Shown: positions 1 to 57,686 of the stretch, in pieces | Numbering within the stretch: the stretch's first letter is position 1 | How the letters are laid out: each line of letters starts with the position of its first letter | Origin: an uncultured bacterium | Lineage (GTDB): Bacteria; Babelota; Babeliae; Babelales; Babelaceae | Assembly: GCA_963717435.1 (NCBI GenBank) | Contig: OY970332.1 | Span: forward strand, 864,001-928,000 | Direction: 5' to 3' | Length of the DNA: 64,000 nucleotides | Notes under the pieces: generated by a model | What the model saw: the letters and a program-made list of their open reading frames with translations, nothing else | The model's database searches: none | What the model was told of the DNA's origin: nothing | Translations under genes and position numbers: made by a program

Positions 1-984
1 ATTTGGCGGCTGAAAAAGTGGGATAACTGTTTTATAATCTTGAGATTTTCTGAAATCTATTACCCAAATTAAGCCCAATATGAATACTAAAAACAAGCCC
101 AGCAGCGCAATAATAATATTTAAGTTATCTACCAATAACCATATAATTTTCTGAATAAAACTTGGTTGTGTAACGTATCCCTTGGGCCATGTTGCAACTA
201 TAGTTAGTCCCTCACCTGGATCAAGTCTTTTTGTTGTTTTAAATATTATTTTGTTGCTTAATATGTTGCTTGATTTTGTTTCCCCGCTCGTCCCGAGTGA
301 AATTCCGGAGGAATTTAGTATCAGCTCGCCCGGCGAAGCTTTAAGCGAAGCCTGGGAGGGATCGGCGATTTTGGCCCCGTAATCTTGCCCTTTTTCTCCA
401 AAATAGCCAGTATAAGCTTCAAATTTTATTTTTTCACTTGGGATATTATTGTCCGGCAAAATAACAGTGGCTTCTGCTTTTTCTATAGGTAATCGCCAAC
501 CATTCCCAGTTACGTTCCAGTAAAGTTCATCAAATTTCTCAAAGTAACCAAGTTGCCTGTTAGTTCTATAATTAATTTCGTAACTATAAATACCGGGGGT
601 TAAATATATATCTGGGTTGCCAATATAAATATATACCCCATTATTTCTTCTTTCTATCTTATATTGCTCTTTATTACCGTTTTTAAGTACAGATTTAAGT
701 TCAAATTTTACATTATAATTATTATTAAACTTGTCTTTATATTTTGTTGGGAATTCGCGTACAATTCCACGTTTTATCTGCGCCCCCATGGCATTAACAG
801 TGATCTTTTCCGTTACATTAAGAGAGCCATCTTTTTCTATTTTTATAAAACTCTCAAATTTAACTATTTTTTCGTTACTGTAATTTTCCCAGTAACAAAA
901 TATATTACTTATTAAAAAAATGGGCCCTAACGTTACTAGGGCCCTTAATATCAGACTTTTTTTCTTACACGCATTTATTTTCAT
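1..984 (-). CDS. DUF2207 family membrane protein (LemA partner), runs off the window edge; contains an in-frame repeat insertion
   Basis: Absent from the ORF track; hand translation from ATG 984 is open to position 1: MKINAC...GSLNVTEKITV...IKRGIVREFP...FDELYWNVTGNGWRLPIEKA...LDPGEGLTIVATWPKGYV, then a TM helix and VIPLFQPP. Lies downstream of lemA. Confidence 0.85.
   Translation of the reverse strand, partial: MKINACKKKSLILRALVTLGPIFLISNIFCYWENYSNEKIVKFESFIKIEKDGSLNVTEKITVNAMGAQIKRGIVREFPTKYKDKFNNNYNVKFELKSVLKNGNKEQYKIERRNNGVYIYIGNPDIYLTPGIYSYEINYRTNRQLGYFEKFDELYWNVTGNGWRLPIEKAEATVILPDNNIPSEKIKFEAYTGYFGEKGQDYGAKIADPSQASLKASPGELILNSSGISLGTSGETKSSNILSNKIIFKTTKRLDPGEGLTIVATWPKGYVTQPSFIQKIIWLLVDNLNIIIALLGLFLVFILGLIWVIDFRKSQDYKTVIPLFQPPN
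282..365 (+). repeat. Outer hairpin element with a nested 33-bp inner element (323-355), in frame in the DUF2207 gene
   Basis: CCCCGCTCGTCCCGAGTG-AAATTCCGGAGGAATTT-AGTATC[AGCTCGCCCGGCGAAGCTTTAAGCGAAGCCTGG]GAGGGATCGG; with the insert removed it closely matches the reverse complement of 26311-26360. Confidence 0.9.
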
Positions 985-1013
985 ATATGCCTCACTGTCG
1001 ATCTGTGTTCTAT

Positions 1014-1076
1014 CCCCGCCGTCTTTAATATCGCCTGCGCGCCGAAGCTTTAGCGTAGGCGTGAGGGATTGGCGGG
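1014..1076 (+). repeat. Intergenic hairpin carrying a 30-bp inner element (1033-1062)
   Basis: CCCGCC...AATATC[GCCTGCGCGCCGAAGCTTTAGCGTAGGCGT]GAGGGATTGGCGGG. Confidence 0.75.
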
Positions 1077-1081
1077 CTGTC

Positions 1082-1645
1082 TTAAAACTTAACCTGTGGA
1101 TTTTCTCTTTCAATCCCATTAGAAAGTTCAAAATATTCAGCTTTTTTAAAGCCCAATCCTGAAGCTATTAAGTTCTTTGGAAATACTGTAATTCCAATAT
1201 TATAGTTTCTTGCAGCGCCATTATAATATCTTCTTGATAGCTGAATATCGTTTTCTATATTATTCAAATCTTCTTGAAGTTTCATAAAGTTTTGATTTGC
1301 TTTTAGTTCAGGGTAGTTTTCAGCGACGGCAAAAAGTGTTTTTAAAGCCGAAGTTAAACCTGTTTCAGCTATAGATTTTTGGTCTATAGTACTGGCACCC
1401 ATGGATGCGGCACGCAATTTGGCTATATTTTCAAAAATATCTTTCTCGTGGATACTATACTGTTTTACAGTTGCTACCAGGTTTGGAATCAGGTCATAAC
1501 GTCTTTTTAATTGAACATCGATACCCGACCAACCCTCATCAACCATGGCTTTTAGGTGAACCAAGCCGTTATAAGCTGAAATTGCATAAAGGGCCAAAAC
1601 GCCCAAAACTGCCAAAATCACTATCAAAGTTGTGTTTATTTCCAT
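1082..1645 (-). CDS. lemA: LemA family protein
   Basis: N-terminal TM; GWSGIDVQLKRRYDLIPNLV, VAENYPELKANQNF, SRRYYNG motifs. Confidence 0.95.
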   Translation of the reverse strand: MEINTTLIVILAVLGVLALYAISAYNGLVHLKAMVDEGWSGIDVQLKRRYDLIPNLVATVKQYSIHEKDIFENIAKLRAASMGASTIDQKSIAETGLTSALKTLFAVAENYPELKANQNFMKLQEDLNNIENDIQLSRRYYNGAARNYNIGITVFPKNLIASGLGFKKAEYFELSNGIERENPQVKF

Positions 1646-1993
1646 TTTTACTCCTAAAAGTTATTGTTTTAAACACTTTTCTTCTATAACTATTATAACA
1701 CAGATTTATATTTCCCATAACTTGCAGTTTTTTTAGTAAAAACCCAACACTGTTTTTCAGGGTTATTACAGGAGTGTTTTTAGCTGTCGCCAAAACTTGC
1801 TGTAAAAACTCTTGAATTTAGTTGTTAATTTCAGATATGATTAAATTGTAGTAAAAATATTTGTGAATTAAAAAGCAACGGCGGCGGATTTGATTTACAG
1901 TGATTGTGGATAAATTTAATTGAAATAAAAAGTGAGTTTGAATCAAGTAAAGAATGTTTAATAATTATTAAAAAACCAATTTAAGGAGGTTTT

Positions 1994-2335
1994 ATGAAGA
2001 AGAGTTTATTATTTGCAAGTTTGGTCGCTTTGGCAGGTAGCTTAAGCGCCTACGATCTTATAATTGAAAATAAGTTACCGGCTGTTGCCTACTATTTAAT
2101 TGAATACGGTTCTGGTTCGCCAGACAAGGGATACCTTGCACCAGTTGGGCAAGAAGGCTCGAGCGACACTGTTCTTACGCATGGAAGTTGCGTAAATAAA
2201 GTCGCTGCAAAAAATAATGACACAGGTGCCTGGGCCGATGATTGGAAAGGTTTCGATCTTTGCAAGTCTACAAAGTTTTCCATTCAAAGGGCGGCTAACG
2301 GTGGAGTAGAAATTAAACGAATTTATGATTTCTAG
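1994..2335 (+). CDS. Small secreted hypothetical protein
   Basis: AGGAGG RBS; signal peptide MKKSLLFASLVALAGSLSA; followed by a terminator. Confidence 0.8.
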   Translation: MKKSLLFASLVALAGSLSAYDLIIENKLPAVAYYLIEYGSGSPDKGYLAPVGQEGSSDTVLTHGSCVNKVAAKNNDTGAWADDWKGFDLCKSTKFSIQRAANGGVEIKRIYDF

Positions 2336-2376
2336 AAATCGGCTCCATAAGTGTTAGAGCTTAGGATTAAGAATTG

Positions 2377-2406
2377 AAAAGGGCCGTTTAATTACGGCCC
2401 TTTTTT
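2377..2406 (+). terminator. Intrinsic terminator, probably bidirectional
   Basis: AAAAGGGCCGT-loop-ACGGCCCTTTTTT. Confidence 0.8.
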
Positions 2407-2422
2407 GTAATAAACCAATTAA

Positions 2423-2806
2423 ATGGTCAGAACTATGAATAAAAAAATATTATTTTTTGCTATTTGTTTAAGTCTTGCAAGAAATACTTATGGATATACG
2501 GTTACTATTGAAAATCAGTTTGATGTTACAGTAAGAGTAACAACTGAATATCAGAACCCGGAATTATGTCCGTTATTTAGTTTTGATGTCCCATCTGGTC
2601 AGATTCGTGAACAAAAATATACAGACGACTGTTGTTTGACAAAGCTTACTGTCGAGGCCAAAGACAGGACATATTATCAGTTTGGAACAGGAGCCTGCAC
2701 GAACTTTTATTATATTATTAGGCCCAAAGCTGATACTAGAGATTTCTTTATAGATCAAAATAACGGTTCTACTATCGATATGCAGGGTAGCAAATTTAGG
2801 GGTTAG
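2423..2806 (+). CDS. Small secreted Cys-containing hypothetical protein, possible paralog of 1994..2335
   Basis: Signal peptide; mature N-terminus YTVTIENQ resembles YDLIIENK. Confidence 0.7.
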   Translation: MVRTMNKKILFFAICLSLARNTYGYTVTIENQFDVTVRVTTEYQNPELCPLFSFDVPSGQIREQKYTDDCCLTKLTVEAKDRTYYQFGTGACTNFYYIIRPKADTRDFFIDQNNGSTIDMQGSKFRG

Positions 2807-2811
2807 AGTTT

Positions 2812-5800
2812 TTATTCAAAAATATCGCCCGATATTTTTATATCAAAATATTTTGGCAGTACTATTTTTTCTATAAGCTTAGAAGAAGCTAGCATATCTT
2901 CTTTGTTTTCTGATCTTACAATAACATGGGAATTTATGTCTTTTAACGTCGACTCTAATTCGACGATTAATTTGATAAAAAGTTTTATTCCAGCAATTCT
3001 GTCGCTATCTGTTGATATAGTTTCTTTTGCTCCAGAATTATCTGTACTATTTTCAGAATCTGCGTTGTCATCTAAGATTTCTTTCACGCTGTGTTTTTGT
3101 GACAATAAATTTTTGTTCGAAGAAGCAGAAGAGTCCAGTTCTTTTTCCAGCTTTTGCCATAAGTTTTTTTCTTCAATCTTCTTCAATAATTCTGAAGTTG
3201 ACATGGCAATGTTGCCCTTGTTGGCAAGAAAAGCTTCCATTTGATGATCCGTTACTAAATCTGTAATTATATTCTGATCATCTTCAACAGGCGTGTAGGT
3301 ATACGCATAAAGCATGAAAAATGTTCCAGGGTTGGACCAATCCATACAGTGTGCGATATCTTTGTGAATCCCCCATTTTCTTTGCTTCTTTTTAGATTCA
3401 ATAATATGAAACTTCTCGATAGGCTTATATTTATCTTTGTTTTCACTTAAATCTACTATTGGCAGTCGCTTTTCAAGAGCATAAAGATAACCAGATTTGT
3501 CGCGTTTAATTATTAATGGAGGCACGCCGTACGGTATTTTTTCAGGAACCAAAAACTGCCCGTTTTCAGATTTACAATAAACAAGTTGTGAAATGATCCC
3601 GTACCATTGCGCACGAATTGGTGTAACAAAATTTTGAAACTGTTCAAAGTCTTGACAGCTTTCATGCATCACGCCAACTACTGTTGTTTTTACGCCATTA
3701 GTTAAAATAAGTTCTGAGCCACGTTTGATCTGATTTTTGTAACTTGTATCTGGAATCTCTCCGTCCATGCCGGACCATATGCTCGAATAATACTCGTGAT
3801 TAATATAATTTTGAAATAAATTTACAATTTTATTATTAAGATCTAATAATTTTTTCGAATCAAATTTTAAAAGAATATTATAAACTTTATCAAGCGCATA
3901 TTGAGAATCTCTCAACTCATGTTCTTTTGACAGCTTTTCTTGTACATGTTTTAAAATATCTTCGCCTTGCGCAGCTATAACTCTTTGCACTTCTGACTTT
4001 AAATCTTTTTCAAGCGTTTTTCCTGAAATTAAATTTAAGCTTTCGCCTGCGTGTTTTTCCAATATATTATACATAGATAATCTTAAAGCGGTTTCTATAA
4101 CAAGATTTTCAGCAAGCTTGGCTCTGCAGTCGTTTAATAGTTTATAATTTTCTGCTTCTCTGTGTACCATTATTTTGTAGAAGCTATTTTCGATATCAAA
4201 TCTGTCTTTAAACAATTTTTTCGCGTACTGCAAAATAAAGTTAACACGAATATTTTCTCTTGATGTTCTTGGGTACATACTCAAGAAGTTAACAAATACC
4301 ACTCGTTCGATACCTTGGGCCTTCATCTTGTCTATCAAAATTTGCATGAAATCTTTATAACTTAATGGAAGCGACAGGCCCTTTACGAATAACATCTGTT
4401 CAGGCACAGCGTTTTTAAGACCAGTTGAATGGGTGGTTGCTAACGGTACAAGAATTTTTAAAGTTTTATTCTCTTTTTTATTAAATATATAATGGCTATT
4501 TTCAAACTCGAATGGGACCCAGTCCTGATCAAGCTTGTTTAAATTTACTACCTGTTGCGCGAAGTGATATTCGATATTACTGTCACTATTATTAGTATTA
4601 TTACTGTTATTAGAGTAAAGCTCAAGATTTTCGCGTATAACTTGATTTTTTAGATGCTCAAAATTTTCTATAAGCTTTTCACGATTTTCAGAAACAAATT
4701 TTAAAATTTTATTAATATCATGTTCTTGAAGATCTTTTTTGGTTGATACGTCAGAGTAAACAAACCCCTCAGGTTTTATCGTAAAATGACTTATTTGGGC
4801 AGGAAGATCCACCAAAAACAATTTGTCTTTTAACTTATATACTGTCGCTTCTTGACTTGACGAGTTATCGCAACGTTCATATTTTTCAAATTGATCAGAA
4901 TATTTTTGCCAATTTTGTATATTATTTAATAAAGTACTTTTTCCGACGCCATCAACAAAACTGCCGAATATATAAGCAGTGTTTTTATCTTCTATTGGCT
5001 TTATATATTTTTCAAATTCTGTAATAAATTTTTGAGCGTTAGCAGTCGCGCCAGCCTTTTGTATAGATAGCGTCTCTATAGGGTAAGTTATATCTGGTCC
5101 GACAAATATCTTTTTGATATTACATTTGCCCTTAACCAACATGCTGGCATATTCTGTAGAGAATAAAATATCTTGTGTTGCAATATTATTCCCAAATCCA
5201 CTTTTGCATGATTTTTCAAACAAGAATTTCCAGAAATCCACTATGCTGCTCAAGCAAGCAACAGGGTCCTTGGAATATATTTTTCGTTCTATTTCGTTTC
5301 TGATTTGAATTATATAATCAAAATCTTTATCTAATGCATGCTTTTGGAAAACTACGTTGTTGTCATCAAAAAAATTAATATTTTTTGCATGGACATGTTC
5401 AAATATCGCGGGGCTGTCTGGGTGCCACTTTTTTTCTAACCAGTTTGCATCTTTTAAAACAAATCCTGTTAAGAAGCCAAACATGTTTCTTGCTGATTTT
5501 TCTGAACCAGAATTATTTTTTAGTATCGCTTCATCATGAATATCTTCACGATCCCAGCTTGAAGTATACGGCGGCATTCCGTCTTCCTGGTACCCAATAA
5601 TTAATATATCATGATCAACTTTAATCTGATTTTGTTTTATAAACTCTCTAAGTTGCAAAAAACTATTAGCCGTTTTTTTTAGAGTATATGGGTGATATTC
5701 TCGAGTGTATTTACTCTCAAGATCATACTTGTCTATAAAACTATCTATAAAATTATCAGGGTTTGCTTCTGAAAATAAAAAATTTACACAGAACAAGCTT

Positions 5801-5832
5801 AGCATTAACATGCTAGATTTTTTATTAATCAT
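2812..5832 (-). CDS. Large hypothetical protein with an atypical P-loop (GTPase-like); alternative start at 6069
   Basis: Signal peptide from MINKKSS (ATG 5832); FVDGVGKSTLLN Walker A-like motif and LFLVDLPA G3-like motif. Confidence 0.7.
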   Translation of the reverse strand: MINKKSSMLMLSLFCVNFLFSEANPDNFIDSFIDKYDLESKYTREYHPYTLKKTANSFLQLREFIKQNQIKVDHDILIIGYQEDGMPPYTSSWDREDIHDEAILKNNSGSEKSARNMFGFLTGFVLKDANWLEKKWHPDSPAIFEHVHAKNINFFDDNNVVFQKHALDKDFDYIIQIRNEIERKIYSKDPVACLSSIVDFWKFLFEKSCKSGFGNNIATQDILFSTEYASMLVKGKCNIKKIFVGPDITYPIETLSIQKAGATANAQKFITEFEKYIKPIEDKNTAYIFGSFVDGVGKSTLLNNIQNWQKYSDQFEKYERCDNSSSQEATVYKLKDKLFLVDLPAQISHFTIKPEGFVYSDVSTKKDLQEHDINKILKFVSENREKLIENFEHLKNQVIRENLELYSNNSNNTNNSDSNIEYHFAQQVVNLNKLDQDWVPFEFENSHYIFNKKENKTLKILVPLATTHSTGLKNAVPEQMLFVKGLSLPLSYKDFMQILIDKMKAQGIERVVFVNFLSMYPRTSRENIRVNFILQYAKKLFKDRFDIENSFYKIMVHREAENYKLLNDCRAKLAENLVIETALRLSMYNILEKHAGESLNLISGKTLEKDLKSEVQRVIAAQGEDILKHVQEKLSKEHELRDSQYALDKVYNILLKFDSKKLLDLNNKIVNLFQNYINHEYYSSIWSGMDGEIPDTSYKNQIKRGSELILTNGVKTTVVGVMHESCQDFEQFQNFVTPIRAQWYGIISQLVYCKSENGQFLVPEKIPYGVPPLIIKRDKSGYLYALEKRLPIVDLSENKDKYKPIEKFHIIESKKKQRKWGIHKDIAHCMDWSNPGTFFMLYAYTYTPVEDDQNIITDLVTDHQMEAFLANKGNIAMSTSELLKKIEEKNLWQKLEKELDSSASSNKNLLSQKHSVKEILDDNADSENSTDNSGAKETISTDSDRIAGIKLFIKLIVELESTLKDINSHVIVRSENKEDMLASSKLIEKIVLPKYFDIKISGDIFE

Positions 5833-5870
5833 CCATATATTTTCCGGTACTTTGGGCAGATTTTCATGAT

Positions 5871-6002
5871 CCGCTCGTCCTGAGTGTTTTTTGAGCGTAT
5901 TGCGCGAAAAAAACGTATCGAAGGATCGGATCACGGGTTCGCTGTATCCTTCGATACATTCTACTTCGCTCTCCGAGCTTCGTAGAACACTCAGGACGAG
6001 CG
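5871..6002. repeat. Inverted pair of outer hairpin elements (5871-5927 and 5946-6002)
   Basis: CCGCTCGTCCTGAGTG...GTATCGAAGGATC and ATCCTTCGATAC...CACTCAGGACGAGCG. Confidence 0.9.
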
Positions 6003-6058
6003 AGTGTAGATCAAGCTTTGCTTTGAATTTTGAAAATATTTTTAAAATAACTGAGTTT

Positions 6059-6934
6059 CTAATCACCATAATCTGCCTGCTTATTTTGTTTTTTTAGCAA
6101 ACTTACTATTTGTTGGTTTTTCTCGTATAACTCAGCATATATTGCTTCAAATTTCGTTTTGTCATAAGTCGCATTTGACCAGGTTTTTAATTTAGCAACC
6201 TGTTTTTTAAGCTCTTTATTAAACTTCACAGCCAGCTGACAATATTTCTTATAAAGCTCTGAATTATTAATATGGGCGTAAGAGTATTTGATTGCTTCTG
6301 AAAATTGGTTCACCAAGCAGTCGCAATAAAATGCATAAAAAACAAACATTGGATGATGCTCCCCTTGGGGCACATCAAGTTGTTGTGCAATATCCAAAAT
6401 GGGTATTAACCCATTCTCTGAAGCAATTTTTTTTGTAACTTGAATAAGATCTATGTCTTTATTATAAGATTTTAGATAAATATTTTTTAAAAATATTTCA
6501 TAAACTGTGCATTGCCAAAGTGACTTTGAATAAAGCTGTGTGATATCATCACAGTCTTTTTCATTAAAGTAATCAGCTCTTGTTTGCGATTGCGCAAGCA
6601 TTAAAATTGCAAGTTCTAACCCTTTAAAAAAATCTTTTAGCTGGAGATTTAAAAGCTCCTGCATAACCCACGGTGCATTGGGTTTAAACTCATCTAACTG
6701 TTTCTTGAAGCTTTCCAGCCCCAATATCTCAGTAGTATTTGTTTCAGATATTTTTTTGCTAATTAGATTTTGTATAGATTCTGTTTCTTGTTCCCGCTCG
6801 TCCCGAGTGTTCTTCGAAGCCTTGGCGAAGAAGAATGTATCGAGGGATTGCGATGTGCTCTTAGCGAGATTAGGGCTAAGTAATATAGCAACTAAAGCAA
6901 GAACCAGTAGTTCAGATTTAAGTTTTATTGCCAT
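6059..6934 (-). CDS. Secreted hypothetical protein with an in-frame repeat after the signal peptide
   Basis: ATG 6934 with G-rich RBS; signal peptide MAIKLKSELLVLALVAILLSPNLA. Confidence 0.75.
   Translation of the reverse strand: MAIKLKSELLVLALVAILLSPNLAKSTSQSLDTFFFAKASKNTRDEREQETESIQNLISKKISETNTTEILGLESFKKQLDEFKPNAPWVMQELLNLQLKDFFKGLELAILMLAQSQTRADYFNEKDCDDITQLYSKSLWQCTVYEIFLKNIYLKSYNKDIDLIQVTKKIASENGLIPILDIAQQLDVPQGEHHPMFVFYAFYCDCLVNQFSEAIKYSYAHINNSELYKKYCQLAVKFNKELKKQVAKLKTWSNATYDKTKFEAIYAELYEKNQQIVSLLKKQNKQADYGD
6793..6848 (+). repeat. Outer hairpin element, in frame in CDS 6059..6934
   Basis: CCCGCTCGTCCCGAGTG-TTCTTCGAAGCCTTGGCGAAGAAGAA-TGTATCGAGGGAT; encodes SLDTFFFAKASKNTRDER. Confidence 0.9.
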
Positions 6935-6956
6935 TTTAACCGCCCCCTTTTTTATT

Positions 6957-8081
6957 TTAGAACCAACTGTTATTTTCAGCCAAATTAGCCTCAAAATCCA
7001 CAAACATCTTGCTTACGTTATTCATAGCGGCAAGTCTGTTTTTTATCGCAGCAAGATTGTGCGATGCAATAAGATCTGAAATATCTGCAAGATTGTTTTT
7101 AAAGTTCTCGGCCAAACTGTCCAAGCCAGATCTTGCTGCAGCAGGCATGTCTTTGTTCTTCACTTTGGTAGCATAAAGCATGTATGCGATAACTCTATGA
7201 CCCTCTTTTAATAATTGGGCATAAGCCATATTCAAATTCTCTCTGCTTAGCTGTGCATATAGTTCGTCACCAGATTTTTCAGTGCCAACTATCGTGCATG
7301 CATTAACCATCTCTAGCGCAGATTCAAAGTTAGTATGATGGGTAATAAAATATTCGTAACTAAGAGGCATAAAATGCTTGTAAAAGCTTCTGCTTGTCCA
7401 TGCTATTGCCGCACCTAGCGCCAACTGGAACCCTATTCCTGTTCCAATTCCCCAAATTCCATGGAAAAAGCTGCTAATATACCCGCGTTCTGGTTCTATA
7501 TGAGTCTTGTTTTGCCAGTTTATCAATAACGCATTCAATTCAGATGGCGAAAGTTGTTTTAGAAAACAGATTAGAGTTCTGAGTAAATTTATATTTTTGC
7601 TTTGTTTTGGCTTTTCACGACCAATTTCATCTAGAGAATCCAAAAGTTCGCGAATTTCACTTTTTTTCTGCTCGGCATCTACATGAACTTTTCTATCAGC
7701 TTCTATCAAATTAACTAGATCTATTAATTCGTCTTTTGCAGCTTTCCGCGGCTTGCCTATCTTCGAATATAAATCTTTGCAGGTTGAGACTACATCTTTT
7801 TGGTACAAATAATATCCAGCACCTAAAGCCACTGTCGCATACCCAAGTGTTCTAAATTTACTGTTTTTTTCTTCAAGACTAATTATTGTTTTGATCTCAT
7901 GCAAAATTTGATCGCGATTAATAATCAGAGCAGATTTTTTTTCTTGCAAAGTTTGTTCTGCTATTTTTGGTTCAGCAACTTGCGTTTGAGCAATTAAGCT
8001 GTTAGCACAAAACAGAGCCAATAATATTTTGCAACTTAAGTTTTTATTTATAAGTTTTAAGCTTGTCATCTCAGACTCCAA
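6957..8081 (-). CDS. Hypothetical secreted/membrane protein
   Basis: 374-aa ORF; signal peptide; glycine-rich hydrophobic segment GIWGIGTGIGFQLALGAAIAW. Confidence 0.75.
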   Translation of the reverse strand: MESEMTSLKLINKNLSCKILLALFCANSLIAQTQVAEPKIAEQTLQEKKSALIINRDQILHEIKTIISLEEKNSKFRTLGYATVALGAGYYLYQKDVVSTCKDLYSKIGKPRKAAKDELIDLVNLIEADRKVHVDAEQKKSEIRELLDSLDEIGREKPKQSKNINLLRTLICFLKQLSPSELNALLINWQNKTHIEPERGYISSFFHGIWGIGTGIGFQLALGAAIAWTSRSFYKHFMPLSYEYFITHHTNFESALEMVNACTIVGTEKSGDELYAQLSRENLNMAYAQLLKEGHRVIAYMLYATKVKNKDMPAAARSGLDSLAENFKNNLADISDLIASHNLAAIKNRLAAMNNVSKMFVDFEANLAENNSWF

Positions 8082-8085
8082 ATTT

Positions 8086-9060
8086 TTAATTTAACCCAGC
8101 TAAGCTAGAAAGATCCATGTCACCTAATGACATTCCTGATGACTTTGAAGATCCTGATGAGCTACTTGCAGAAGGTTCCATAAATTTATTTTCTTGCTTA
8201 GATCCAAGATCAGAACCATAATTTATCAACTGCGCTATATACTTTAAATCTTGGCACACAATTGACAACCATGTTTTAAGTTCGCCATGCTTTTCTTGCA
8301 TCTCTTTTAGAGATTTTGTATCGGCTATTATTTCTCTCATGTGAACTAAATCTGATATTGTGTAGCCAATTTGTATAGCTATTGATTCTTGATCACATCC
8401 ACTAAAAGAATTACTAAACTTTAGGGCCATTCTTCTTATGATTCCTGACTTATCAGCTCTTGCTGCTTCTGGGCTATACCAGATTAAAGATCTCTTGAAA
8501 AATCTGATTGTATAATCGATTTCAGCCAATATTCTTAATTTAACAGGGATCCAAGAATTGCTTGAACCAGTATTGGTATCAATCTCTGCACGCTTTTCTT
8601 TTGAAAAATTACCCAAGGAAACTTGAGTATAGGGCGTAATTTGCTTTGTTAATCTGTTATTAATAATAATTAGTATATCCCAATCAAGCGGCTTCATTTG
8701 GGTCAAGAATCTGTGATACAAATGTATGAATGAGGATGTTAGGGCATCCCAACCTATAGGAAAAACGCGGAACATTTTTTCAGCCGTAGCCCTTATCGCC
8801 CCAGAAAGGGCATCATGTACGCCTTTATCAAAAGCTAGAGAGATTTTTGCGCGCCAATTTTTTAGCTTTTGCAGCGCTTCTAGGTCACTTCCACCACCAA
8901 TTAGCATTCTTCGAAGCATAAGCTCCTCGTCGACTTTTGATGTTCTTGCGTCATCGTTCTCTGTAGCCGCATCCTTCTTCATTCCCCAAATTGTTGCAAA
9001 AGAAGCTTGAATCAACAGAACCATAACTAGTTTTGTTGCAAATTTGTTTGTTTTTTCCAT
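8086..9060 (-). CDS. Hypothetical secreted protein with Ser-rich C-terminus
   Basis: Long ORF (track start 9075); signal-like N-terminus from MEKTNK. Confidence 0.75.
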   Translation of the reverse strand: MEKTNKFATKLVMVLLIQASFATIWGMKKDAATENDDARTSKVDEELMLRRMLIGGGSDLEALQKLKNWRAKISLAFDKGVHDALSGAIRATAEKMFRVFPIGWDALTSSFIHLYHRFLTQMKPLDWDILIIINNRLTKQITPYTQVSLGNFSKEKRAEIDTNTGSSNSWIPVKLRILAEIDYTIRFFKRSLIWYSPEAARADKSGIIRRMALKFSNSFSGCDQESIAIQIGYTISDLVHMREIIADTKSLKEMQEKHGELKTWLSIVCQDLKYIAQLINYGSDLGSKQENKFMEPSASSSSGSSKSSGMSLGDMDLSSLAGLN

Positions 9061-9263: not shown

Positions 9264-9281
9264 ATTGGTATTTTTTGCTAT

Positions 9282-34062: not shown

Positions 34063-34138
34063 CCCCGCTCGTCCCGAGTGTTTTTTCGCAGAAAAAATGT
34101 ATCGAGGGATGGTTTCGGTGATCACTCGGGACGAGCGG
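34063..34138 (+). repeat. Outer hairpin element (34063-34110) plus an inverted half copy (34123-34138)
   Basis: CCCCGCTCGTCCCGAGTG-TTTTTTCGCAGAAAAAA-TGTATCGAGGGAT...CACTCGGGACGAGCGG. Confidence 0.9.
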
Positions 34139-34156
34139 CTTTGCTTACCTAAGAAC

Positions 34157-43741: not shown

Positions 43742-43816
<75 letters not shown>

Positions 43817-47476: not shown

Positions 47477-47478
47477 AA

Positions 47479-50216: not shown

Positions 50217-50230
50217 TTTTGAATCAAACA

Positions 50231-50252
50231 AGGGCGTGCTTTCACACGCCCT
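50231..50252. terminator. Hairpin between convergent genes
   Basis: AGGGCGTG-CTTTCA-CACGCCCT. Confidence 0.65.
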
Positions 50253-50282
50253 ATGCTAAATTTGGAACTGTATAGCGATTTA

Positions 50283-51836
50283 TTACGATTTTTTGCTTGA
50301 TAGAAATTTATGAGCGGCTTTTACAAATTCTTGGGCTAATATTTCATATTCTCCAATTAAATTATTCATAGCCTTTGCAATAGCCTTTGTTTTTTTGTCC
50401 TTATCTAAAGTATCCTTTTTTTGTTCCATAGCAGTTTTCACTTCTTTTATAGTTTTTTTATTGTTTTCTTCGGCCTGCTTTAATCCAGCTTCATTATTAT
50501 TGCTTGGCATATAGAACTTATTTATTTCACCTAATATTTGGGATAATTTACTGAAATCATCGAATAATTTTTTGTTATAATCGTTTGATGGTAAAACTTT
50601 ATAGAATTTTGATCTGATGTTTCCTAATATAACTTGTGCAATATTTTGTATTTTTAAGAATTTGGCTTCATCAAATTTTTGGTTATCTATAAAATTGATC
50701 TTTCTAATAGTTTCAAAGCCATATTTTATTCCATCATCGACATTGCGATCCAAACTTTTAACTAATAGTTCAATGAAATTTTTGAACTGCATTTCGATAT
50801 CTTCAGGAGTTTGAGAAGGACGGCTTATGTTAATAGCTTTGTTTTCTGATTCAGTTTTAGCAGCCCTCGTTTCATTTTCTTTCAATTCTTTTTCCCATTG
50901 ATCCTTAAAGTTTTTTGCCAATTCTTTGTATTTTACGGCAAGATATAACATCAATTCTTTGGATTGTTTAGGTCCAGTATTGAATACGAATATATCAGGA
51001 GCATCGGTTGCTTTCTTTAGTTCAGAGGCTATTGTGGCGTTGGTAGCTTTCAGTTCTTTGGCAAAACTTTCTAGATATGCTTTGTAGTCTGTTTTGGCTT
51101 GCTTAGAAGCCTCAAGCCATTTTGTGTTATTCTCTTCAATCAATCGAGTAATTTTGTTTAATGCATCTTTATAGGCTGGGAATTTTGTGGGTAGATCTGT
51201 GGAACCAGAATATTTTACAAATAAGTTTAGATTGTCCAATTCTAAATCAATTTTATTCTTTAATTTTTCGATGTTTCTTATATCTAATTGTCCAAATAAA
51301 CGGTCCATGTCTTGCTTAAGAACATCCATTTTGGGTATTAAATTATTTTTTACTTTTTCTACTATATCCTCAAATATCTTTACAAAAACATTAATTAATT
51401 CTTTAGTGTCTTTATCGATTTTTAACTCAGAAAAACTCTTTGATTTTATTTGATTTTTAAGAGTTTCTATTTTCTTTGAAATATCGGTTAAAAAAGCATC
51501 AATATCATTAGGGTTTGTAGGAACTGGATTTTCTAAGCCTTTTTTTAATTTATTTAAACCCTCTATAATTGAATTAGACAGTGTCTGAATATCGGTTATT
51601 GCTTGGTTCGAAACTTCTTTTGAAATTGAAGCCATGGTGCTATTCCAGCTTCTTGCTGCTTTTGAATCTTTAGAGAATTTTCTTAGATCGACGTCTGTGT
51701 TTCCAATTCCAAACAATGCCTCTGCTTTGTTTCTTAACTCTTGGCGAAACTCTTTATCTAGCTCGTAAGTAATAATGCTAGTTATGTTTAAACTTGCGAT
51801 TAAAAATAAAATATTATAGAAAAATATTTTTTTCAT
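50283..51836 (-). CDS. Secreted coiled-coil-rich hypothetical protein
   Basis: GAGG RBS; signal peptide; K/E-rich helical sequence. Confidence 0.75.
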   Translation of the reverse strand: MKKIFFYNILFLIASLNITSIITYELDKEFRQELRNKAEALFGIGNTDVDLRKFSKDSKAARSWNSTMASISKEVSNQAITDIQTLSNSIIEGLNKLKKGLENPVPTNPNDIDAFLTDISKKIETLKNQIKSKSFSELKIDKDTKELINVFVKIFEDIVEKVKNNLIPKMDVLKQDMDRLFGQLDIRNIEKLKNKIDLELDNLNLFVKYSGSTDLPTKFPAYKDALNKITRLIEENNTKWLEASKQAKTDYKAYLESFAKELKATNATIASELKKATDAPDIFVFNTGPKQSKELMLYLAVKYKELAKNFKDQWEKELKENETRAAKTESENKAINISRPSQTPEDIEMQFKNFIELLVKSLDRNVDDGIKYGFETIRKINFIDNQKFDEAKFLKIQNIAQVILGNIRSKFYKVLPSNDYNKKLFDDFSKLSQILGEINKFYMPSNNNEAGLKQAEENNKKTIKEVKTAMEQKKDTLDKDKKTKAIAKAMNNLIGEYEILAQEFVKAAHKFLSSKKS

Positions 51837-51965
51837 AAACTACCTCTTTTTTATAGGGATTTTGTTTAAATTAGATGGGATTTGTTTTTTGCATGCTACT
51901 TCTTAGCACTATAAATAGTCTTTTGGGATTATGCAATAATTTTGAAATGTAAAAACTGGTGGGGG

Positions 51966-52859
51966 TTATTTCTCTTGTTTTTCTTCTTGATAATAAATAT
52001 AAAGCCCTAAGAATACGGTTAAATTCGAGATAAATAAGCTGAGAGTTATTTGTTCGCCTAAAAATATTTTTCCGAAAATTGCTGTAAAAAGCGGGCACAT
52101 TAAACTGGAAATTGCAATAAAGGTGACTGTGTATTTTTTAAGAAGGGCGCCGTAGAAGTTGTAAAATACTATATTGCCCGCAAGAATTATTAAAAATAGA
52201 AGAAATAAAAAATTGCTTAAGTCAGTTATTGGATGCCTGGTTTCAAATAGCCAAGATGTTGGGAATGTTAAGAGCCCGCCCAAGAACATAGTAAGATAAT
52301 TAACTATTATCGGTGACTGGTTTTCGTAGTTAATCATTTTGCGCATTAATATCCAACTATATGCGTAAGTTGCAACAGAGATAATTAATAATATTTCTGG
52401 CCAGGATATAAAAAAACGATCTGATATTAACGGGTCTTGAGAGTGTTCGATCAATATTGGCAGACAGCCAATAAAGCTTATTATAAGTCCCGCCCATTTT
52501 TTTAAGTTTATTTTTTCGTGTAGCATAAAATATGAAAAAATCGCTGAAATAAATGGCGTGAGATTATACAAAAAAGATACTTTTATGCTCGATGTATATT
52601 TAAGTGCTACAAAATCGAAGACATAAGAGATAAAATTTCCAAGAATAATAATTTGCGCGATATCAATTAGATTTTGTTTTGTTAACGCAATTTTTTTAAT
52701 CTTTTCTTTTTTTACTATTAAACTATAAGCAAGCAAAGAAAGACCACCAAGCGTCATACGCAGGCCTGTAATAAAAACTGGGCCGGAATAGTTCAAAAGT
52801 AATTTGCCGATTGTAAATGTGCTTGCGTATAATATATTTAAAATTATTATAAATAACAT
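51966..52859 (-). CDS. EamA/DMT family transporter
   Basis: About ten TM helices in two EamA repeats; FITGLRM, TPFISAIFSYFMLHEK, FLGEQIT. Confidence 0.88.
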   Translation of the reverse strand: MLFIIILNILYASTFTIGKLLLNYSGPVFITGLRMTLGGLSLLAYSLIVKKEKIKKIALTKQNLIDIAQIIILGNFISYVFDFVALKYTSSIKVSFLYNLTPFISAIFSYFMLHEKINLKKWAGLIISFIGCLPILIEHSQDPLISDRFFISWPEILLIISVATYAYSWILMRKMINYENQSPIIVNYLTMFLGGLLTFPTSWLFETRHPITDLSNFLFLLFLIILAGNIVFYNFYGALLKKYTVTFIAISSLMCPLFTAIFGKIFLGEQITLSLFISNLTVFLGLYIYYQEEKQEK

Positions 52860-52956
52860 GATTGATATCTCAGATAGATTTGGGAACGCGAAGTAGAGAT
52901 CGAGCTTCAAAAACTACAGTTTAGTGTTATGTAATTATATCATAAGGGGCAATTTT

Positions 52957-53829
52957 GTGAAAGAGGCCGCACAGCTTTTAATCGTTACTGGATATTCAGG
53001 AGCTGGAAAAAGTTCTGTATTAAGAGCATTGGAAGATATAGGTTTTTTCTGTATCGATAATCTGCCAGAGGCACTTTTAGAATCTTTTTTTCAATTTGTT
53101 TCAAATTTAAATACTAACGAACAGCGTGTAGCTTTGGGCGTCGATATCCGTGGTGGCCATGACATGAATCGGCTTGTCGAATATTTAAATATACTTAAAA
53201 ATAAACAAGCATGTGTAACAAAAATAGTTTTTTTGCAATCAACTTCAAATACTATACTAAAAAGATTTCAAGAAACTCGAAGAAAGCACCCACTTGCTGA
53301 CAATTTTGATCTTATAGACGCAATAGAACAAGAAAAAGTTTTACTTAAGCCACTTTCAGAGATAGCAGACCTAACTATAGACACAGATCAGCTTAATATT
53401 CATGATCTTCGAAAACTGGTTCGAAAAGTTTTTGCCTCAGAAGAAAAAATGCCCAAAATGTTAATTACACTAACGTCTTTTGGGTTTAAATATGGCGCAC
53501 CGAGTGAAGCAAATTTTATCTTTGATGTGCGATCGTTGCCCAACCCATACTTTGTTGAAAACTTAAAAAAGCTTGATGGAACGAGCCAAGAAATTAAAGA
53601 ATATCTGTTTGAGCTTAAAGATGTCCAAGATTATTGGGCCAAGCTTAAAGATTTTTTTATTTATGCTGTTGAAAAATCTTATAAAGAGGGCAGATTCTTT
53701 ATGCATTTTTCTGTGGGCTGCACAGGCGGACGGCACAGATCGGTTGCTTTTATTGAAGAGCTTGCTAAAACCAAACTGGATTATGTAGAATTCTTTGTAA
53801 AACATAGAGATGTTTATAGGGAAGGGTAG
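52957..53829 (+). CDS. rapZ: RNase adapter RapZ/YvcJ family P-loop protein
   Basis: VTGYSGAGKS, FCIDNLP, RFQETRRKHPL, SFGFKYG, FDVRSLPNP, GCTGGRHRSV. Confidence 0.95.
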   Translation: MKEAAQLLIVTGYSGAGKSSVLRALEDIGFFCIDNLPEALLESFFQFVSNLNTNEQRVALGVDIRGGHDMNRLVEYLNILKNKQACVTKIVFLQSTSNTILKRFQETRRKHPLADNFDLIDAIEQEKVLLKPLSEIADLTIDTDQLNIHDLRKLVRKVFASEEKMPKMLITLTSFGFKYGAPSEANFIFDVRSLPNPYFVENLKKLDGTSQEIKEYLFELKDVQDYWAKLKDFFIYAVEKSYKEGRFFMHFSVGCTGGRHRSVAFIEELAKTKLDYVEFFVKHRDVYREG

Positions 53830-53835
53830 TAAAAA

Positions 53836-54111
53836 GTGAAAGATATAAAAAAACTTTCTTTGAGAGTTGCTTTTGGTTTTGAAATTCTATTTTTTTTATT
53901 TTTCTATATATTCGGTGCTCGAGGATTAAAGGCTATAAGATCGGGCAAGCAAGAAGTTTTAAATTTGCAAAATATATTAGAAACCGCGGAAAAAGAAAAG
54001 AATCTTCTTGCGGGCCAGCTTAATGATTGGGAAAGTTTGCCATTTTACAAAGAGCGTATAGCCAGAAACGAACTTCAAATGGCACACAAAAATGACGAGA
54101 TTTATATATAA
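53836..54111 (+). CDS. Septum formation initiator FtsB/DivIC family
   Basis: TM, G..G, coiled coil, ERIARNELQM..NDEIY. Confidence 0.75.
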   Translation: MKDIKKLSLRVAFGFEILFFLFFYIFGARGLKAIRSGKQEVLNLQNILETAEKEKNLLAGQLNDWESLPFYKERIARNELQMAHKNDEIYI

Positions 54112-54134
54112 ATTAATTTTAAAAAAGGGAATCT

Positions 54135-54740
54135 ATGATTTATAACTTGCCGCCACTGCCATATGCTTACGACGCACTTGAGCCATACATTGACGCGCTT
54201 ACAATGGAAATACATTATACCAAACATCATCAAGCATATGTTGATAATTTAAATGCTGCATTAAAAAAATATCCAGAGTTACATTCAAAAACTCTTGCGC
54301 AATTAATCGAAAATTTAAATTCAGTTCCTGAGCCAATTAGAGAAGCAGTAAGAAATAACGGCGGCGGGCATATGAATCACAGTATGTTTTGGACATTGCT
54401 TAAAAAAGACGGCGGCGATCCGGTTGGAAAAGTTAAAGATGAGATTAACAGTATATTTGGAAGTTATGGTGCATTTAAAGAAGAATTTACAACTGCTGCA
54501 AAATCCCGTTTTGGCAGCGGCTGGGCCTGGTTGTCTTTGGATAAAGGCGGCAAGCTTGTGATTACTTCAACTGCAAATCAGGACAACCCGATCTCTCAGG
54601 GCTTAACGCCAATACTTGGGCTTGATGTCTGGGAACATGCTTATTACTTAAAATACCAAAATAGACGCCCCGACTATATCTCAGCTTGGTGGCACGTAAT
54701 TAATTGGAAACAGGTAGAAGATAACTATAAATTGTTATAG
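54135..54740 (+). CDS. sodA: Superoxide dismutase, Mn-type signature
   Basis: [40 protein letters not shown]. Confidence 0.95.
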
Positions 54741-54843
54741 TTTGTTTTTGTATAATAAATTCAAGTGAAGTTTTTTAGATTGGCTTTTCAAATTCATGGT
54801 AAAAGCCTATCTATATTTTTTGTATTTAAAAAAATTAAAAAAC

Positions 54844-55674
54844 TTATTTATTTTGTTCTTTATCTGAACCATACCACCAATTTTTAAATCCAGTAAACCA
54901 GCCGGAACTGCCAGTGTTCTGTTGTGTTGGCTGTAAAGTTTGTTTTGTGGGTGATGTTTTAACTTGCTTAGGTTTAAATTGCAAATCTTCGGCCCTATAA
55001 TCTTTTTCAAATGATTCTATTCCCTTATTCAATTTTTCATTAAATTTCTTTTTGAATTCTGGATTTTTTTTAATTTCATTGAGCAGCCATAGATTTGCTT
55101 CTAGGGCTAAAGCTACCTCTATTTTTTTTTGTTCGATATTCATTTGAGGTATGGGCTTTTCATATTTTTCTGGCCCGGAAGCTGAGCGTATAATATCGAT
55201 TTTACCCGTATACGTCTTTGCCTTTTCATTAATGATTTTATTCATAACATCTAGTTTGAATTGCTCATAAGTGTAGTTTTTCCAATCAGGCTTATTTTGG
55301 TTACGAGCATACTCTTGAATCATTTTGCGAATCAACCTAGCTGATTCAGGTCCTTTTTTTATTAAATTATCAGTAAAATAAAAAATTGCTTTTTCGTTTT
55401 CAGCGTCAGGTCTAATTAATATTCCTAAGTTATGTAATTCTTTAGTTAAGGCGTTCAAAACCTCATCTTTAGACGAATACTTACTCATTTGCTTATATTC
55501 TTTTTCACGTGTTTCCGAACGGTTTTCTATTTTGCTCATAAGTTCTCGTTTCTCCTCGCGACTTCTGTCAGACGCGGCTATGTCTAGGTATTTATCTACT
55601 TCTTCCAATGTCATTGTTTCAATACTGCTGATAATTATTGTAGAACTGAAAATAATAAAGTGTTTTAAATTCAT
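54844..55674 (-). CDS. Secreted hypothetical protein
   Basis: GGAG RBS; signal-like N-terminus; C-terminal GWFTGFKNWW. Confidence 0.7.
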   Translation of the reverse strand: MNLKHFIIFSSTIIISSIETMTLEEVDKYLDIAASDRSREEKRELMSKIENRSETREKEYKQMSKYSSKDEVLNALTKELHNLGILIRPDAENEKAIFYFTDNLIKKGPESARLIRKMIQEYARNQNKPDWKNYTYEQFKLDVMNKIINEKAKTYTGKIDIIRSASGPEKYEKPIPQMNIEQKKIEVALALEANLWLLNEIKKNPEFKKKFNEKLNKGIESFEKDYRAEDLQFKPKQVKTSPTKQTLQPTQQNTGSSGWFTGFKNWWYGSDKEQNK

Positions 55675-55819
55675 TTTAACTCCATAAAATTATGATTATA
55701 TCCAAAAATTAAAATGTACACTTCAATTATATGAGCTTATATTCCTAGTAGTCAACATTAGGGCTATTTCGTTGGATTAATTTAGGCGCTATTGCTGGTA
55801 ATGTTACTGTTTGGAAGAC

Positions 55820-55876
55820 GGCGCAGCCTGACGAAGCCTGCCAAGCCTGTAGGCGTAGATAGGCGTAGACGGGGTC
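55820..55876 (+). repeat. Inner-type element variant upstream of lysS
   Basis: GGCGCAGCCTGACGAAGCCTGCCAAGCCTGTAGGCGT resembles the reverse complement of 12400-12436 (shared GCCTGCCAAGCCTG); AGGCGTAGA is tandemly duplicated. Confidence 0.65.
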
Positions 55877-55964
55877 TAGTTAAATTTAGATAAAAGTGGT
55901 AAATTATTTGTAACTTCAAGCCAAAATCAAGATATCAAAATGTTTTAACAAAGCGATAAGTTTT

Positions 55965-57512
55965 ATGGACTCAAATAACAAAAATAATAATTCAGGTAAC
56001 GGGATTAATAATACTCATGATGGGCAAAATAATCATGAAAATACGCATCATGCGCACAATTTAGAACATGAAGTGCGTGAGCAAAAAGTTAAAAAATTAA
56101 GGGAACTGGGGATAGACCCGTGGCCGGCGTTCAAAGAGGTTGATGGCACATGCGCCCAGGTTATTTCTGAGTTTAAAGATGGTGAAAGCAAAAAGTATAG
56201 CATCTCGGGCAGAATGATCTCCCGTAGAACTCACGGTAAAGCTGCTTTTGCAACCCTTATGGATAGAACCGGAAAGCTTCAGGTTTATATAAAAACTGAT
56301 AATGTCGGCGCTGATAAGTTTAAAATCTTTGAAGAGCTTTTTGATCTTGGCGATATTATCTGGTGTTCAGGAACTTCTTTTAGAACCAAGATGGGTGAAA
56401 TTACTTTGCTTGTCGAACAGTTTGAGTTGCTAAGTAAATGCTTATACCCGCTGCCTGAAAAGTTTCATGGGCTTGCCGATATTGAAGTAAAATACAGACA
56501 ACGATACCTTGATTTAATTACAAGTGAAGCAACACGGGATAGATTTATAAAACGTACAAAGATTTTAAGATCTATCAGAAACTTCTTTAATTCACACGAT
56601 TTTCTTGAAGTCGAAACCCCAATGTTGCACCCAATTGCCGGCGGTGCGGCTGCAAAACCGTTTAAGACCCATCACAATGCTTTGGACACTGAGTTGTATT
56701 TGAGAATTGCTCCAGAGTTATATTTAAAAAGATTGGTTGTTGGCGGCTTTGAGCGCGTTTATGAGATTAATAGAAATTTCAGAAACGAGGGGATCTCAAC
56801 AAGACATAATCCTGAATTTACTATGTTGGAATTTTATATGGCCAACGAAGATTATCACTTTATTATGAACTTTGTTGAGGAACTATTACGCAATATGGCG
56901 CGCGAGGTTTGCGGCACAGATATAGTTGATTTTGGTGATAAAAAAATAGACTTTGGGTCAAAATTCAAAAAATTGACAGTAAAGCAGTCTGTTGTAGAAA
57001 TCGGTGGCTTAACTGAAGCTGATTTGTTACCTGAAAATATAGATAATACTATCAAAAAATATAAAATCGATTTGCCGAATAAGTCTGCTTCTTTGGGCGC
57101 GAAAATATTTGCACTTTTTGAAGAGCTTGTTGAGAAAAAAATCGTTAATCCGACTTTTATTATAGATTACCCGATCGAGATTTCGCCACTTGCAAAACGG
57201 GACTCTAAGAACCCTAATGTTGCAGCAAGATTTGAGTTATTTGTTGCCGGCATGGAAATCTCTAATGGCTTTAATGAGCTTAACGACCCGTATGACCAGG
57301 CACAAAGATTTCACGAGCAAGTTGCTGCTTATGAAGCGGGAGATCAAGAAGCGCACCAGTATGACGCTGACTATGTTCATGCGCTTGAGTATGGCTTGCC
57401 ACCTACTGTTGGCGTTGGGATTGGGATCGACAGACTTGTTATGTTGATGACAAATACAACTTCAATTAAAGATGTTATCTTGTTCCCGACACTTAAACCC
57501 GCTCATAAATAA
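55965..57512 (+). CDS. lysS: Lysine--tRNA ligase (class II)
   Basis: LPEKFHGL, YRQRYLDL, EVETPML, LRIAPELYLKRL, FRNEG..RHNPEF, GIGIDRL. Confidence 0.98.
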   Translation: MDSNNKNNNSGNGINNTHDGQNNHENTHHAHNLEHEVREQKVKKLRELGIDPWPAFKEVDGTCAQVISEFKDGESKKYSISGRMISRRTHGKAAFATLMDRTGKLQVYIKTDNVGADKFKIFEELFDLGDIIWCSGTSFRTKMGEITLLVEQFELLSKCLYPLPEKFHGLADIEVKYRQRYLDLITSEATRDRFIKRTKILRSIRNFFNSHDFLEVETPMLHPIAGGAAAKPFKTHHNALDTELYLRIAPELYLKRLVVGGFERVYEINRNFRNEGISTRHNPEFTMLEFYMANEDYHFIMNFVEELLRNMAREVCGTDIVDFGDKKIDFGSKFKKLTVKQSVVEIGGLTEADLLPENIDNTIKKYKIDLPNKSASLGAKIFALFEELVEKKIVNPTFIIDYPIEISPLAKRDSKNPNVAARFELFVAGMEISNGFNELNDPYDQAQRFHEQVAAYEAGDQEAHQYDADYVHALEYGLPPTVGVGIGIDRLVMLMTNTTSIKDVILFPTLKPAHK

Positions 57513-57518
57513 CTTACG

Positions 57519-57686
57519 CCATGGTTCCCGACTTCGCCAAAGGCTTCGACGGGCAGGCGATACGCCTCACCCCTGTCGGCCATAGCCACCGGCGACGGCT
57601 GAACGAGCGTAATTTAAATTTATCGCTCGCCCTGAGTTTTTTTCGTAGCGTAGCGCAGAAAAAAGTATCGAATGGGTTTGAGCGAA
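57519..57686. repeat. Composite repeat cluster between lysS and recJ
   Basis: CCATGGTTC[31-bp inner 57528-57558]GATACGCCTCACC[second inner-like ~57572-57602, opposite strand]ACGAGCG, followed by outer element CGCTCGCCCTGAGT...AGTATCGAATGGG (57624-57676). Confidence 0.8.

Follow-up and report, generated by a model that had tools for sequence, protein, structure and literature searches.

In-frame palindromes in housekeeping genes have so far been documented mainly in Rickettsia. The Rickettsia palindromic elements (RPEs; Ogata et al. 2000, 2002, as summarised in PMC10969869) are palindromes of about 150 bp found in frame in unrelated housekeeping genes, and the passages on them in PMC10969869 name no mobilising enzyme. 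A hairpin repeat with a known enzyme has been described in Neisseria meningitidis. SsnA, a GIY-YIG protein of 94 residues (CDD cd10448), binds the NTS hairpin repeat and cuts single-stranded DNA (ssDNA) on one strand, 3 nt upstream, and it is inactive on double-stranded DNA and RNA (Chenal et al., Nat Commun 2025, PMC11893778). According to the same report, the locus has an NTS-ssnA-NTS architecture, related SRM repeats are abundant in symbionts, and 2% of the N. meningitidis NTS copies are intragenic. Its authors liken Ssn/NTS to insertion sequences and to repetitive extragenic palindromes (REPs) with their REP-associated tyrosine transposases (RAYTs) (PMC11893778, Discussion). Here we describe a GC-rich hairpin repeat in a stretch of 64,000 nucleotides (the window; G000:C1:864001-928000) from the genome of an uncultured bacterium, a single contig of 1,198,203 bp with 34.6% G+C, whose relatives are labelled Dependentiae/Babeliales. 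A first-pass annotation of the window had interpreted the repeat as a non-autonomous mobile element that adds surface loops to proteins and is mobilised in trans. The analysis supports this interpretation, and we assign the element, with a probability of about 0.7, to the kind of hairpin repeat that goes with small single-domain GIY-YIG nucleases, as in Ssn with SRM/NTS.

Reading of the sequence confirmed the element at all nine window sites at which it had been noted (Table 1), and a genome-wide scan (1.2 Mb) brought the catalogue to 105 copies with lengths of 41–89 nt. None has an open reading frame (ORF) of its own, in agreement with its description as non-autonomous. The consensus is CCGCTCG-YCCY-GAGTG-(variable hairpin)-TGTATCGA-RGGR-T, and a typical unit of about 60 nt (50–60) is conserved from the CC two bases 5' of CGCTCG to approximately six bases past RGG (R-T-x-GCGG). 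In the window, nine matches to the 5' box CCGCTCGYCCYGAGTG (allowing up to 2 mismatches) compare with none in 100 shuffles, and seven matches to the 3' box WGTATCGARGGRT (allowing up to 1 mismatch) compare with a shuffle mean of 0.28 (maximum 3). The outer stem covaries. Position 7 pairs in 104 of the 105 copies with the base that follows the core (T-A 62, C-G 40, T-G 2), and position 10 is likewise paired with its partner in 104 (C-G 71, T-A 33). Between GAGTG and TGTATCGA lies an inner hairpin of free sequence, which has at least five closing pairs in 88/100 copies and 19 different stem starts. Because single folds beat their shuffles only sometimes (z from +0.55 to −5.1, with several copies at −0.5 to +0.55 being no better), the case for structure is made by covariation and not by energy.

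The copies occur as solo arms, as convergent doublets whose arms are separated by a short AT-rich spacer, and as nested or compound forms. There are approximately 13 convergent doublets in the genome, nine of which combine an ATCACC..GGTGAT arm with a conserved AT-rich spacer. We considered a mobile-promoter role for this spacer, which was not supported: sigma70-like hexamers (TTGCGA-17-TATTAT) are present in three of the nine, and an ORF of at least 80 residues begins within 400 nt downstream in two. A hairpin-less form, CGCTCRYCCTGAGC-YTGT-CGAAGGR, is nested within some copies of other genomes. At one orthologous, variable intergenic region, genome G252 (L261:1330-1830) has a hairpin-bearing doublet, whereas G253 (L278:1150-1560) has a hairpin-less doublet and not an empty site. 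Because the two doublets differ by the inner hairpin at a single site, this hairpin is gained or lost in place. No target-site duplication was detected, since direct repeats of 3–8 nt at a range of boundary offsets were not above those of permuted flanks (k = 3, 9 against a permutation maximum of 9; k = 4, 3 against a mean of 2.9).

The first-pass annotation found no transposase in the window and named two kinds of repeat-flanked gene as candidates, HUH/RAYT and GIY-YIG. The second kind is present. An ORF for a single-domain GIY-YIG protein of 94 residues is located at G000:C1:1066108-1066392, 138 kb beyond the window, exactly between inverted copies at 1066027(+) and 1066415(-), with the 5' boxes outermost. 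The Pfam family PF01541 matches residues 4–75 of the protein (E 9.9e-17), and the columns of the Y..Y-x-G..R..H..E motif are conserved in the alignment. Five GIY-YIG matches were found in the genome, one of which is this repeat-flanked ORF. The repeat-linked nuclease gene is present in a single intact copy. The other small GIY-YIG genes (1023036, 413544 and the pseudogene 200267) were rejected as partners because their flanks differ and are not tied to the repeat.

These three genes (G000:C1:1023036-1023275, 413544-413793 and 200267-200425) belong to another subtype, and there is a pseudogene among them that adjoins a tRNA. A different hairpin, such as CATTCATTTTCTGCGAAAATGAATGGC, precedes each of them, and they may represent further pairs of a nuclease and a repeat.

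The association of the gene with the repeat recurs in other genomes. Of the 261 genomes of the phylum, 150 have homologues of the 94-residue protein (E up to 1e-5), which are often present more than once (up to 6 matches in a genome) and of which some contain internal stops. When the best locus in each of 30 genomes was inspected, 26 had boxes within 260 nt on both sides, on the '+' strand upstream and on the '-' strand downstream; among the remaining four, three have no boxes and one is truncated at the end of its contig. An independent pattern search gave agreeing coordinates for G124, G152, G151 and G230. The exact pattern of the repeat is present in 47/261 phylum genomes (0 for the reversed control), and a homologue with E <1e-20 accompanies it in 13 of the 16 genomes that have at least five exact copies. 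The source genome holds 73 exact copies, only 3 of 40 other genomes of the same family were matched, with 1–2 copies each, and in a distant genus the number ranges from 0 to 59 per species. From these counts, the spread of the repeat looks burst-like and patchy.

The repeat also extends beyond the phylum. A scan with one genome per species gave at least 100 stretches; among the matches listed, most are from metagenome-assembled genomes (MAGs) labelled Dependentiae or Babeliales, and some, which have G+C-rich inner hairpins, are labelled Dehalococcoidia, Myxococcota or Sphingopyxis. The same motif, CTCRYCCTGAG..TCGAAGGR, flanks homologues of the nuclease with at least 50% identity that come from MAGs or plasmids labelled Dehalococcoidia, Sphingopyxis, Sphingomonas and Methylobacterium. 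In Sphingomonadales, the homologous gene is located between nrdR and an RNA methyltransferase gene (L218, in a MAG labelled Sphingopyxis, G263:C38; L284, on the Sphingomonas parapaucimobilis plasmid NZ_CP155752.1). At L218, the downstream repeat copies are read through, which results in a 385-residue frame fusing GIY-YIG and methyltransferase.

Several features of this arrangement resemble the Ssn/SRM system as described in PMC11893778. In both, a gene for a single-domain GIY-YIG protein of 94 residues lies between inverted hairpin repeats, tens to hundreds of copies are dispersed in the genome, and an enrichment of the repeats is seen in symbionts. In sequence, the repeats share a directional 5' box and a YCCC..GGGR stem (CGTCA-TTCCC..GGGAA-T in NTS and CGCTCG-TCCC..GGGA-T here). 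In contrast, the stem of the present repeat is broken by the conserved GAGTG and TGTATCGA loops and carries the additional, freely varying inner hairpin, and about 30% of its copies are in ORFs, compared with 2% in N. meningitidis (PMC11893778). The SRM motif, the sequence of the nuclease and the repeat-free context of YazA, all described below, set the system apart from the published family. We therefore file the element as one that would work like Ssn/SRM, with a nuclease that may or may not belong to cd10448.

In the proposed mechanism, the full unit would be the GIY-YIG gene between its two inverted copies, of which there is one in the genome, and most other copies (solo arms, doublets, nested and compound forms) would be gene-less derivatives of it. 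The doublets are read in this way because their outer geometry is the same as that of the full unit and their subterminal bases (..ATGRGC / CCGCCAT..) are similar. On the model of SsnA, the nuclease would recognise the folded hairpin together with the conserved 5' box on one strand of ssDNA and would cut a few bases 5' of the repeat, which is where its conservation begins. In a doublet or gene-bearing unit, the cuts at the two outer ends would be on opposite strands. Copies would then reach new sites without target-site duplication, and those borne by genes would survive only if the frame is kept.

The last step can be compared with the copies inside protein genes. Defining a copy as intragenic when it lies in an ORF of at least 200 residues and at least 15 codons from either end, we found 32 such copies in 28 ORFs, whereas about 70% of the copies are not in long ORFs. 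Twenty-four of the 28 host ORFs have a Pfam family. From Pfam and reading of the domains, the hosts include a class I tRNA synthetase (ValRS, 2 copies), MurB (2 copies), the Mur ligases MurD and MurE, GidA/MnmG, MnmE, MiaA, GlmM, PGI, transketolase, GpsA, asparagine synthase, UDP-GlcNAc 2-epimerase, a SpoU methylase, a PrmC-like methylase and SufBD, in addition to NurA, a glycoside hydrolase of family 3 (GH3) and DUF2207 from the window. Among the 24 deep intragenic copies, defined as those flanked on either side by at least 70 open codons, 23 keep the frame, where one-third would be expected without selection. The first-pass annotation had asked whether coding insertions preserve the frame, and the deep intragenic copies do so with this single exception.

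The host genes in the window are intact, as had been claimed: all four have open ORFs, and their orthologues mostly have no corresponding segment. The NurA insert is absent from 28/29 relatives, the remaining one having an unrelated insert of 11 residues there. The GH3 insert is absent from all 15 orthologue rows that span the site, and the DUF2207 segment of about 34 residues is absent from 14/14 orthologues. In ORF 6059-6934, whose N-terminal region is poorly conserved, five of seven relatives have no residues at the insert site and two have unrelated linkers. The proposal that the inserts form surface loops is supported by an AlphaFold2 model of NurA (mean predicted local distance difference test score, pLDDT, 83.4), in which the two 10-residue blocks of the insert have mean values of 58 and 52 and are placed between the confident strands 76-88 and 114-125. 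The predicted loops are presumably just tolerated by their hosts. Stop codons are scarce in all six frames of the repeat, with a mean of 4.02/6 open frames per copy against 2.86 in composition-matched shuffles (n = 200, maximum 3.12) and 2.48 in random genomic windows, and the repeat can therefore be read as a loop of 15–30 residues; only 7/105 copies have all six frames open. A coding share as high as this is a feature of the source genome, because in G252 only about 1 to 3 of 30 copies examined are in ORFs that are open on both sides.

Two statements of the first-pass annotation about the reading of the element hold in the window but not beyond it. In its four coding copies, the gene always reads the strand opposite to the 5' box to 3' box direction, and two reading frames are used, giving PSI..TSG peptides in three copies and SLDT..TRDER in one. 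Among the 32 intragenic copies of the genome, 18 have the orientation of the gene and 14 the opposite one, and each orientation makes use of all three frames. We also note that the repeat produces spurious ORF extensions and fused ORFs, which is a hazard for annotation.

By description (PMC10969869), the element resembles the RPEs in that palindromes are found in frame in unrelated housekeeping genes of a bacterium of obligate intracellular type, where they add function-compatible peptides (here by prediction), and in that many copies are also intergenic. It differs from them in belonging to another phylum, in its unit length of about 50–60 nt compared with about 150 bp (PMC10969869), and in having a visible candidate enzyme. 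It is thus a second clear case of Rickettsia-type coding palindromes, in another phylum of host-dependent bacteria and with an enzyme candidate that can be tested. If the nuclease indeed cuts the hairpin as ssDNA, the origin of coding palindromes becomes experimentally approachable. If the assignment is true, it would also widen the Ssn/SRM pairing by a second GIY-YIG branch, a repeat type missed by the published motif, and a set of copies of which one-third are translated. Literature searches on Dependentiae palindromes, links between GIY-YIG proteins and RPEs, Ssn follow-ups and the repeat motifs returned no description of the element.

Several observations weigh against the assignment to mobile repeats served by an Ssn-like nuclease. 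The published role in Neisseria is control of transformation, not transposition (PMC11893778). The published SRM motif, HGTCWY..RNCYNB, has one hit in the genome compared with 2, 4 and 2 in three shuffles, and none on a copy of the repeat. The 94-residue protein is nearer to UPF0213/YazA (40–45% identity, E 1e-19 to 1e-21) than to NTS-flanked homologues, and YazA has a fixed housekeeping context (trmNF-yazA-rsmI, with overlapping ORFs) without flanking repeats. Three genomes with 5–28 copies have no homologue of the nuclease at E <1e-5. No empty-site allele or recent movement was seen; three public DNA sequencing runs containing 5–7% of the sampled words yielded, at 80% likeness, only short contig pieces, which span no element, and no RNA run with the stretch was listed. 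Finally, the orientation of solo copies relative to replication is biased only weakly and not significantly (48:31, p 0.07), and therefore gives no clear support to a lagging-strand ssDNA mechanism.

The position of the protein relative to the two groups can be described further. Its best sequence matches among solved structures are UPF0213/YazA-YhbQ proteins (PDB 1zg2 and 1ywl, E 1e-14), and the above identity is to Bacillus subtilis YazA and its Listeria homologue. Unlike YazA, the present gene is repeat-flanked, and relatives have it in multiple copies. GIY-YIG homologues flanked by canonical NTS/SRM occur in two of the same MAGs and are 32–35% identical to the 94-residue protein (E ~1e-14). 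The SRM motif has no hits around four loci of the present type, and canonical hits flank L220 and L222. In a small tree, the 94-residue protein falls outside the NTS-flanked clade (clade support 98/95).

The strongest alternative is a host-domesticated system, in which the repeats are not selfish but serve as recognition sites for a GIY-YIG ssDNA nuclease that shapes or restricts incoming or replicating ssDNA, the coding copies being a by-product. This corresponds to the only role of the family demonstrated by experiment (PMC11893778, Discussion), and it is consistent with the single intact nuclease gene and with the conservation of the boxes across phyla. However, about 30% of the copies are in conserved genes in either orientation, nested and compound forms occur, the nuclease is multi-copy with pseudogenes in relatives, and copy numbers are patchy. 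Because of these four features, selfish spread fits better, and we consider domestication, which is compatible with a GIY-YIG-associated hairpin repeat, to be unlikely.

An action as RNA, such as that of a ribozyme, regulatory hairpin or terminator, would account for the covarying outer stem, for the compensatory changes that keep the inner hairpin, and for fold scores down to z −5.1. Nevertheless, Rfam gave only three tRNAs in the window at the gathering score and no family on the repeat, and at E up to 1 on positions 5800–6900 it gave only a chance miRNA model (E 0.97). The copies occur in both orientations within and between genes, several single folds are no better than shuffles, and the substrate of the associated enzyme family is ssDNA and not RNA, as reported in PMC11893778. 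We give a structured RNA only a slim chance.

Mobilisation by an HUH Y1 tyrosine transposase is suggested by the hairpin repeats, the doublets, which resemble REPINs, and the lack of target duplication. The likeness to REP/REPIN with RAYT and to IS200/IS605 extends to hairpin recognition in ssDNA (here by analogy) and to one enzyme gene flanked by its repeats. In contrast, the enzyme fold is GIY-YIG here and HUH there, and the flanked gene is a GIY-YIG gene. No Y1 gene was found in the single-contig genome with PF01797 (HUH/RAYT), whereas the positive control was detected in 6 of the 14 reference genomes. By definition, REPs lie outside genes. A REP/RAYT-type system is thereby contradicted and highly improbable for this genome. 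Classical miniature inverted-repeat transposable elements of the DDE type differ in that the target-site duplication test is negative here, and the 23S rRNA intervening-sequence protein family PF05635 was not found in the genome. Although the same peptides recur across unrelated proteins, a short peptide module selected for its function is contradicted, and has next to no probability, because three frames in both orientations give six unrelated peptide families, about 70% of the copies are outside long ORFs, and conservation lies in the DNA boxes and base pairing and not in one frame.

Beyond the assignment to GIY-YIG-associated hairpin repeats, a wider and distinctly tentative proposal, which we regard as possible but rather doubtful, is that small ssDNA nucleases of a UPF0213-like GIY-YIG branch, distinct from the Ssn clade, spread coding palindromes. 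The Dependentiae element and the RPEs would then be products of one process, a GIY-YIG-based class of hairpin insertion sequences that write new loops into essential proteins of intracellular bacteria, and the CTCRYCCTGAG..TCGAAGGR family, with or without the inner hairpin, would be an undescribed cross-phylum mobile element. PMC11893778 has no mention of RPEs, in-frame insertions or Dependentiae. In its Supplementary Data 4, R. conorii has 78 SRM hits (93-fold over shuffles), and Babela massiliensis, the only Dependentiae genome found there, has 0 SRM and no homologue.

Table 1. Copies of the hairpin repeat and their host genes in the window, with related sites elsewhere in the genome. Positions are those of the window unless preceded by G000; core, extent of the copy as confirmed by reading of the sequence.
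Feature	Position	Strand	Remarks
Compound copy	282..365 (core 284-365)	+	AAATTCC..GGAATTT hairpin; 3' box split by second hairpin (AGCTCGCCCGGCGAAG..CGAAGCCTGGGAG); in frame in DUF2207, gene on opposite strand
DUF2207 membrane protein, host gene	1..1131, ORF continues left (G000:C1:863107-865131)	-	Pfam PF09972, E 3.9e-31
Left arm of convergent doublet	5869..5930 (core 5871-5926)	+	Fold z -3.47
Right arm of convergent doublet	5944..6005 (core 5946-6003)	-	
Copy	6792..6853 (core 6794-6848)	+	In frame in ORF 6059-6934(-), just past N-terminal hydrophobic segment; encodes SLDTFFFAKASKNTRDER
Host gene, unknown family	6059..6934	-	Homologues in 7/40 relatives searched
Compound copy	18088..18182 (core 18092-18180)	-	33-nt extra hairpin between CGCTCGTCCC and GAGTG; in frame in GH3; encodes PSIHSTSPRLRRTLPGFVQDFAGRGGTSG
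Glycoside hydrolase family 3 (GH3), host gene	16957..18663	+	Pfam PF00933, E 4.7e-74; insert just past N-terminal domain (residues 39-369)
Copy, 51 nt including outer CCCG/CGGG stem	26311..26361 (core 26314-26359)	-	In frame in NurA; encodes (D)PSILNSSGISLGASG
NurA-domain nuclease, host gene	26028..27122	+	Pfam PF09376, E 3.6e-22
Solo intergenic copy	28316..28378 (core 28320-28374)	-	Between 27264-28196(+) and dnaJ 28416-29546(-)
Intergenic copy (34065-34110) and truncated inverted arm ..ggtttcggtgatCACTCGGGACGAGCGG (34111-34138; 34123-34138)	34063..34140	+	Shrunken doublet
Degenerate intergenic copy	57621..57684 (core 57623-57675)	+	Between class II aminoacyl-tRNA synthetase gene (55965-57512) and recJ (57710-59440)
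Doublets sharing spacer (GAGCATTTTTTGCGATTATAAAAATATATAAATTATTATGCAATATT..ACCGCCAT)	G000:C1:193743-193903, 238625-238779, 375698-375857, 438286-438452, 452907-453056, 830581-830747, others		Outside window
Second-module sites	18092-18180, 284-365; G000 395949, 404140, 469611, 477127, 509297, 1098638		

Some of the window copies in Table 1 call for further description. The shrunken doublet, comprising an intergenic copy and a truncated arm, folds as one long hairpin (-40.3 kcal/mol, z -5.1). The convergent doublet is situated within codons 1–66 of the maximal ORF 2812-6069(-), which is 1085 residues long and has no Pfam family. Its two copies are probably intergenic, because they are upstream of an internal M-I-N-K-K start that is followed by a hydrophobic stretch. 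As judged from the sequence, the first ~80 codons of this ORF are probably untranslated, and the likely gene is 2812..~5844(-).

The cumulative GC skew of the whole genome has its minimum at ~490 kb and its maximum at ~1,040 kb, which suggests that these are the origin and terminus of replication. The window is located on the arm that has the + strand as its leading strand.

The form with the 33-nt extra hairpin seen in the GH3 copy recurs at about eight further sites in the genome. A second hairpin module, ..GCTCG-CCCGG-CGAAG-loop-CGAAG-CCTGG, is found inside the first element, always directly 5' of a GAG, and may constitute a repeat family of its own, with a distinct target preference.

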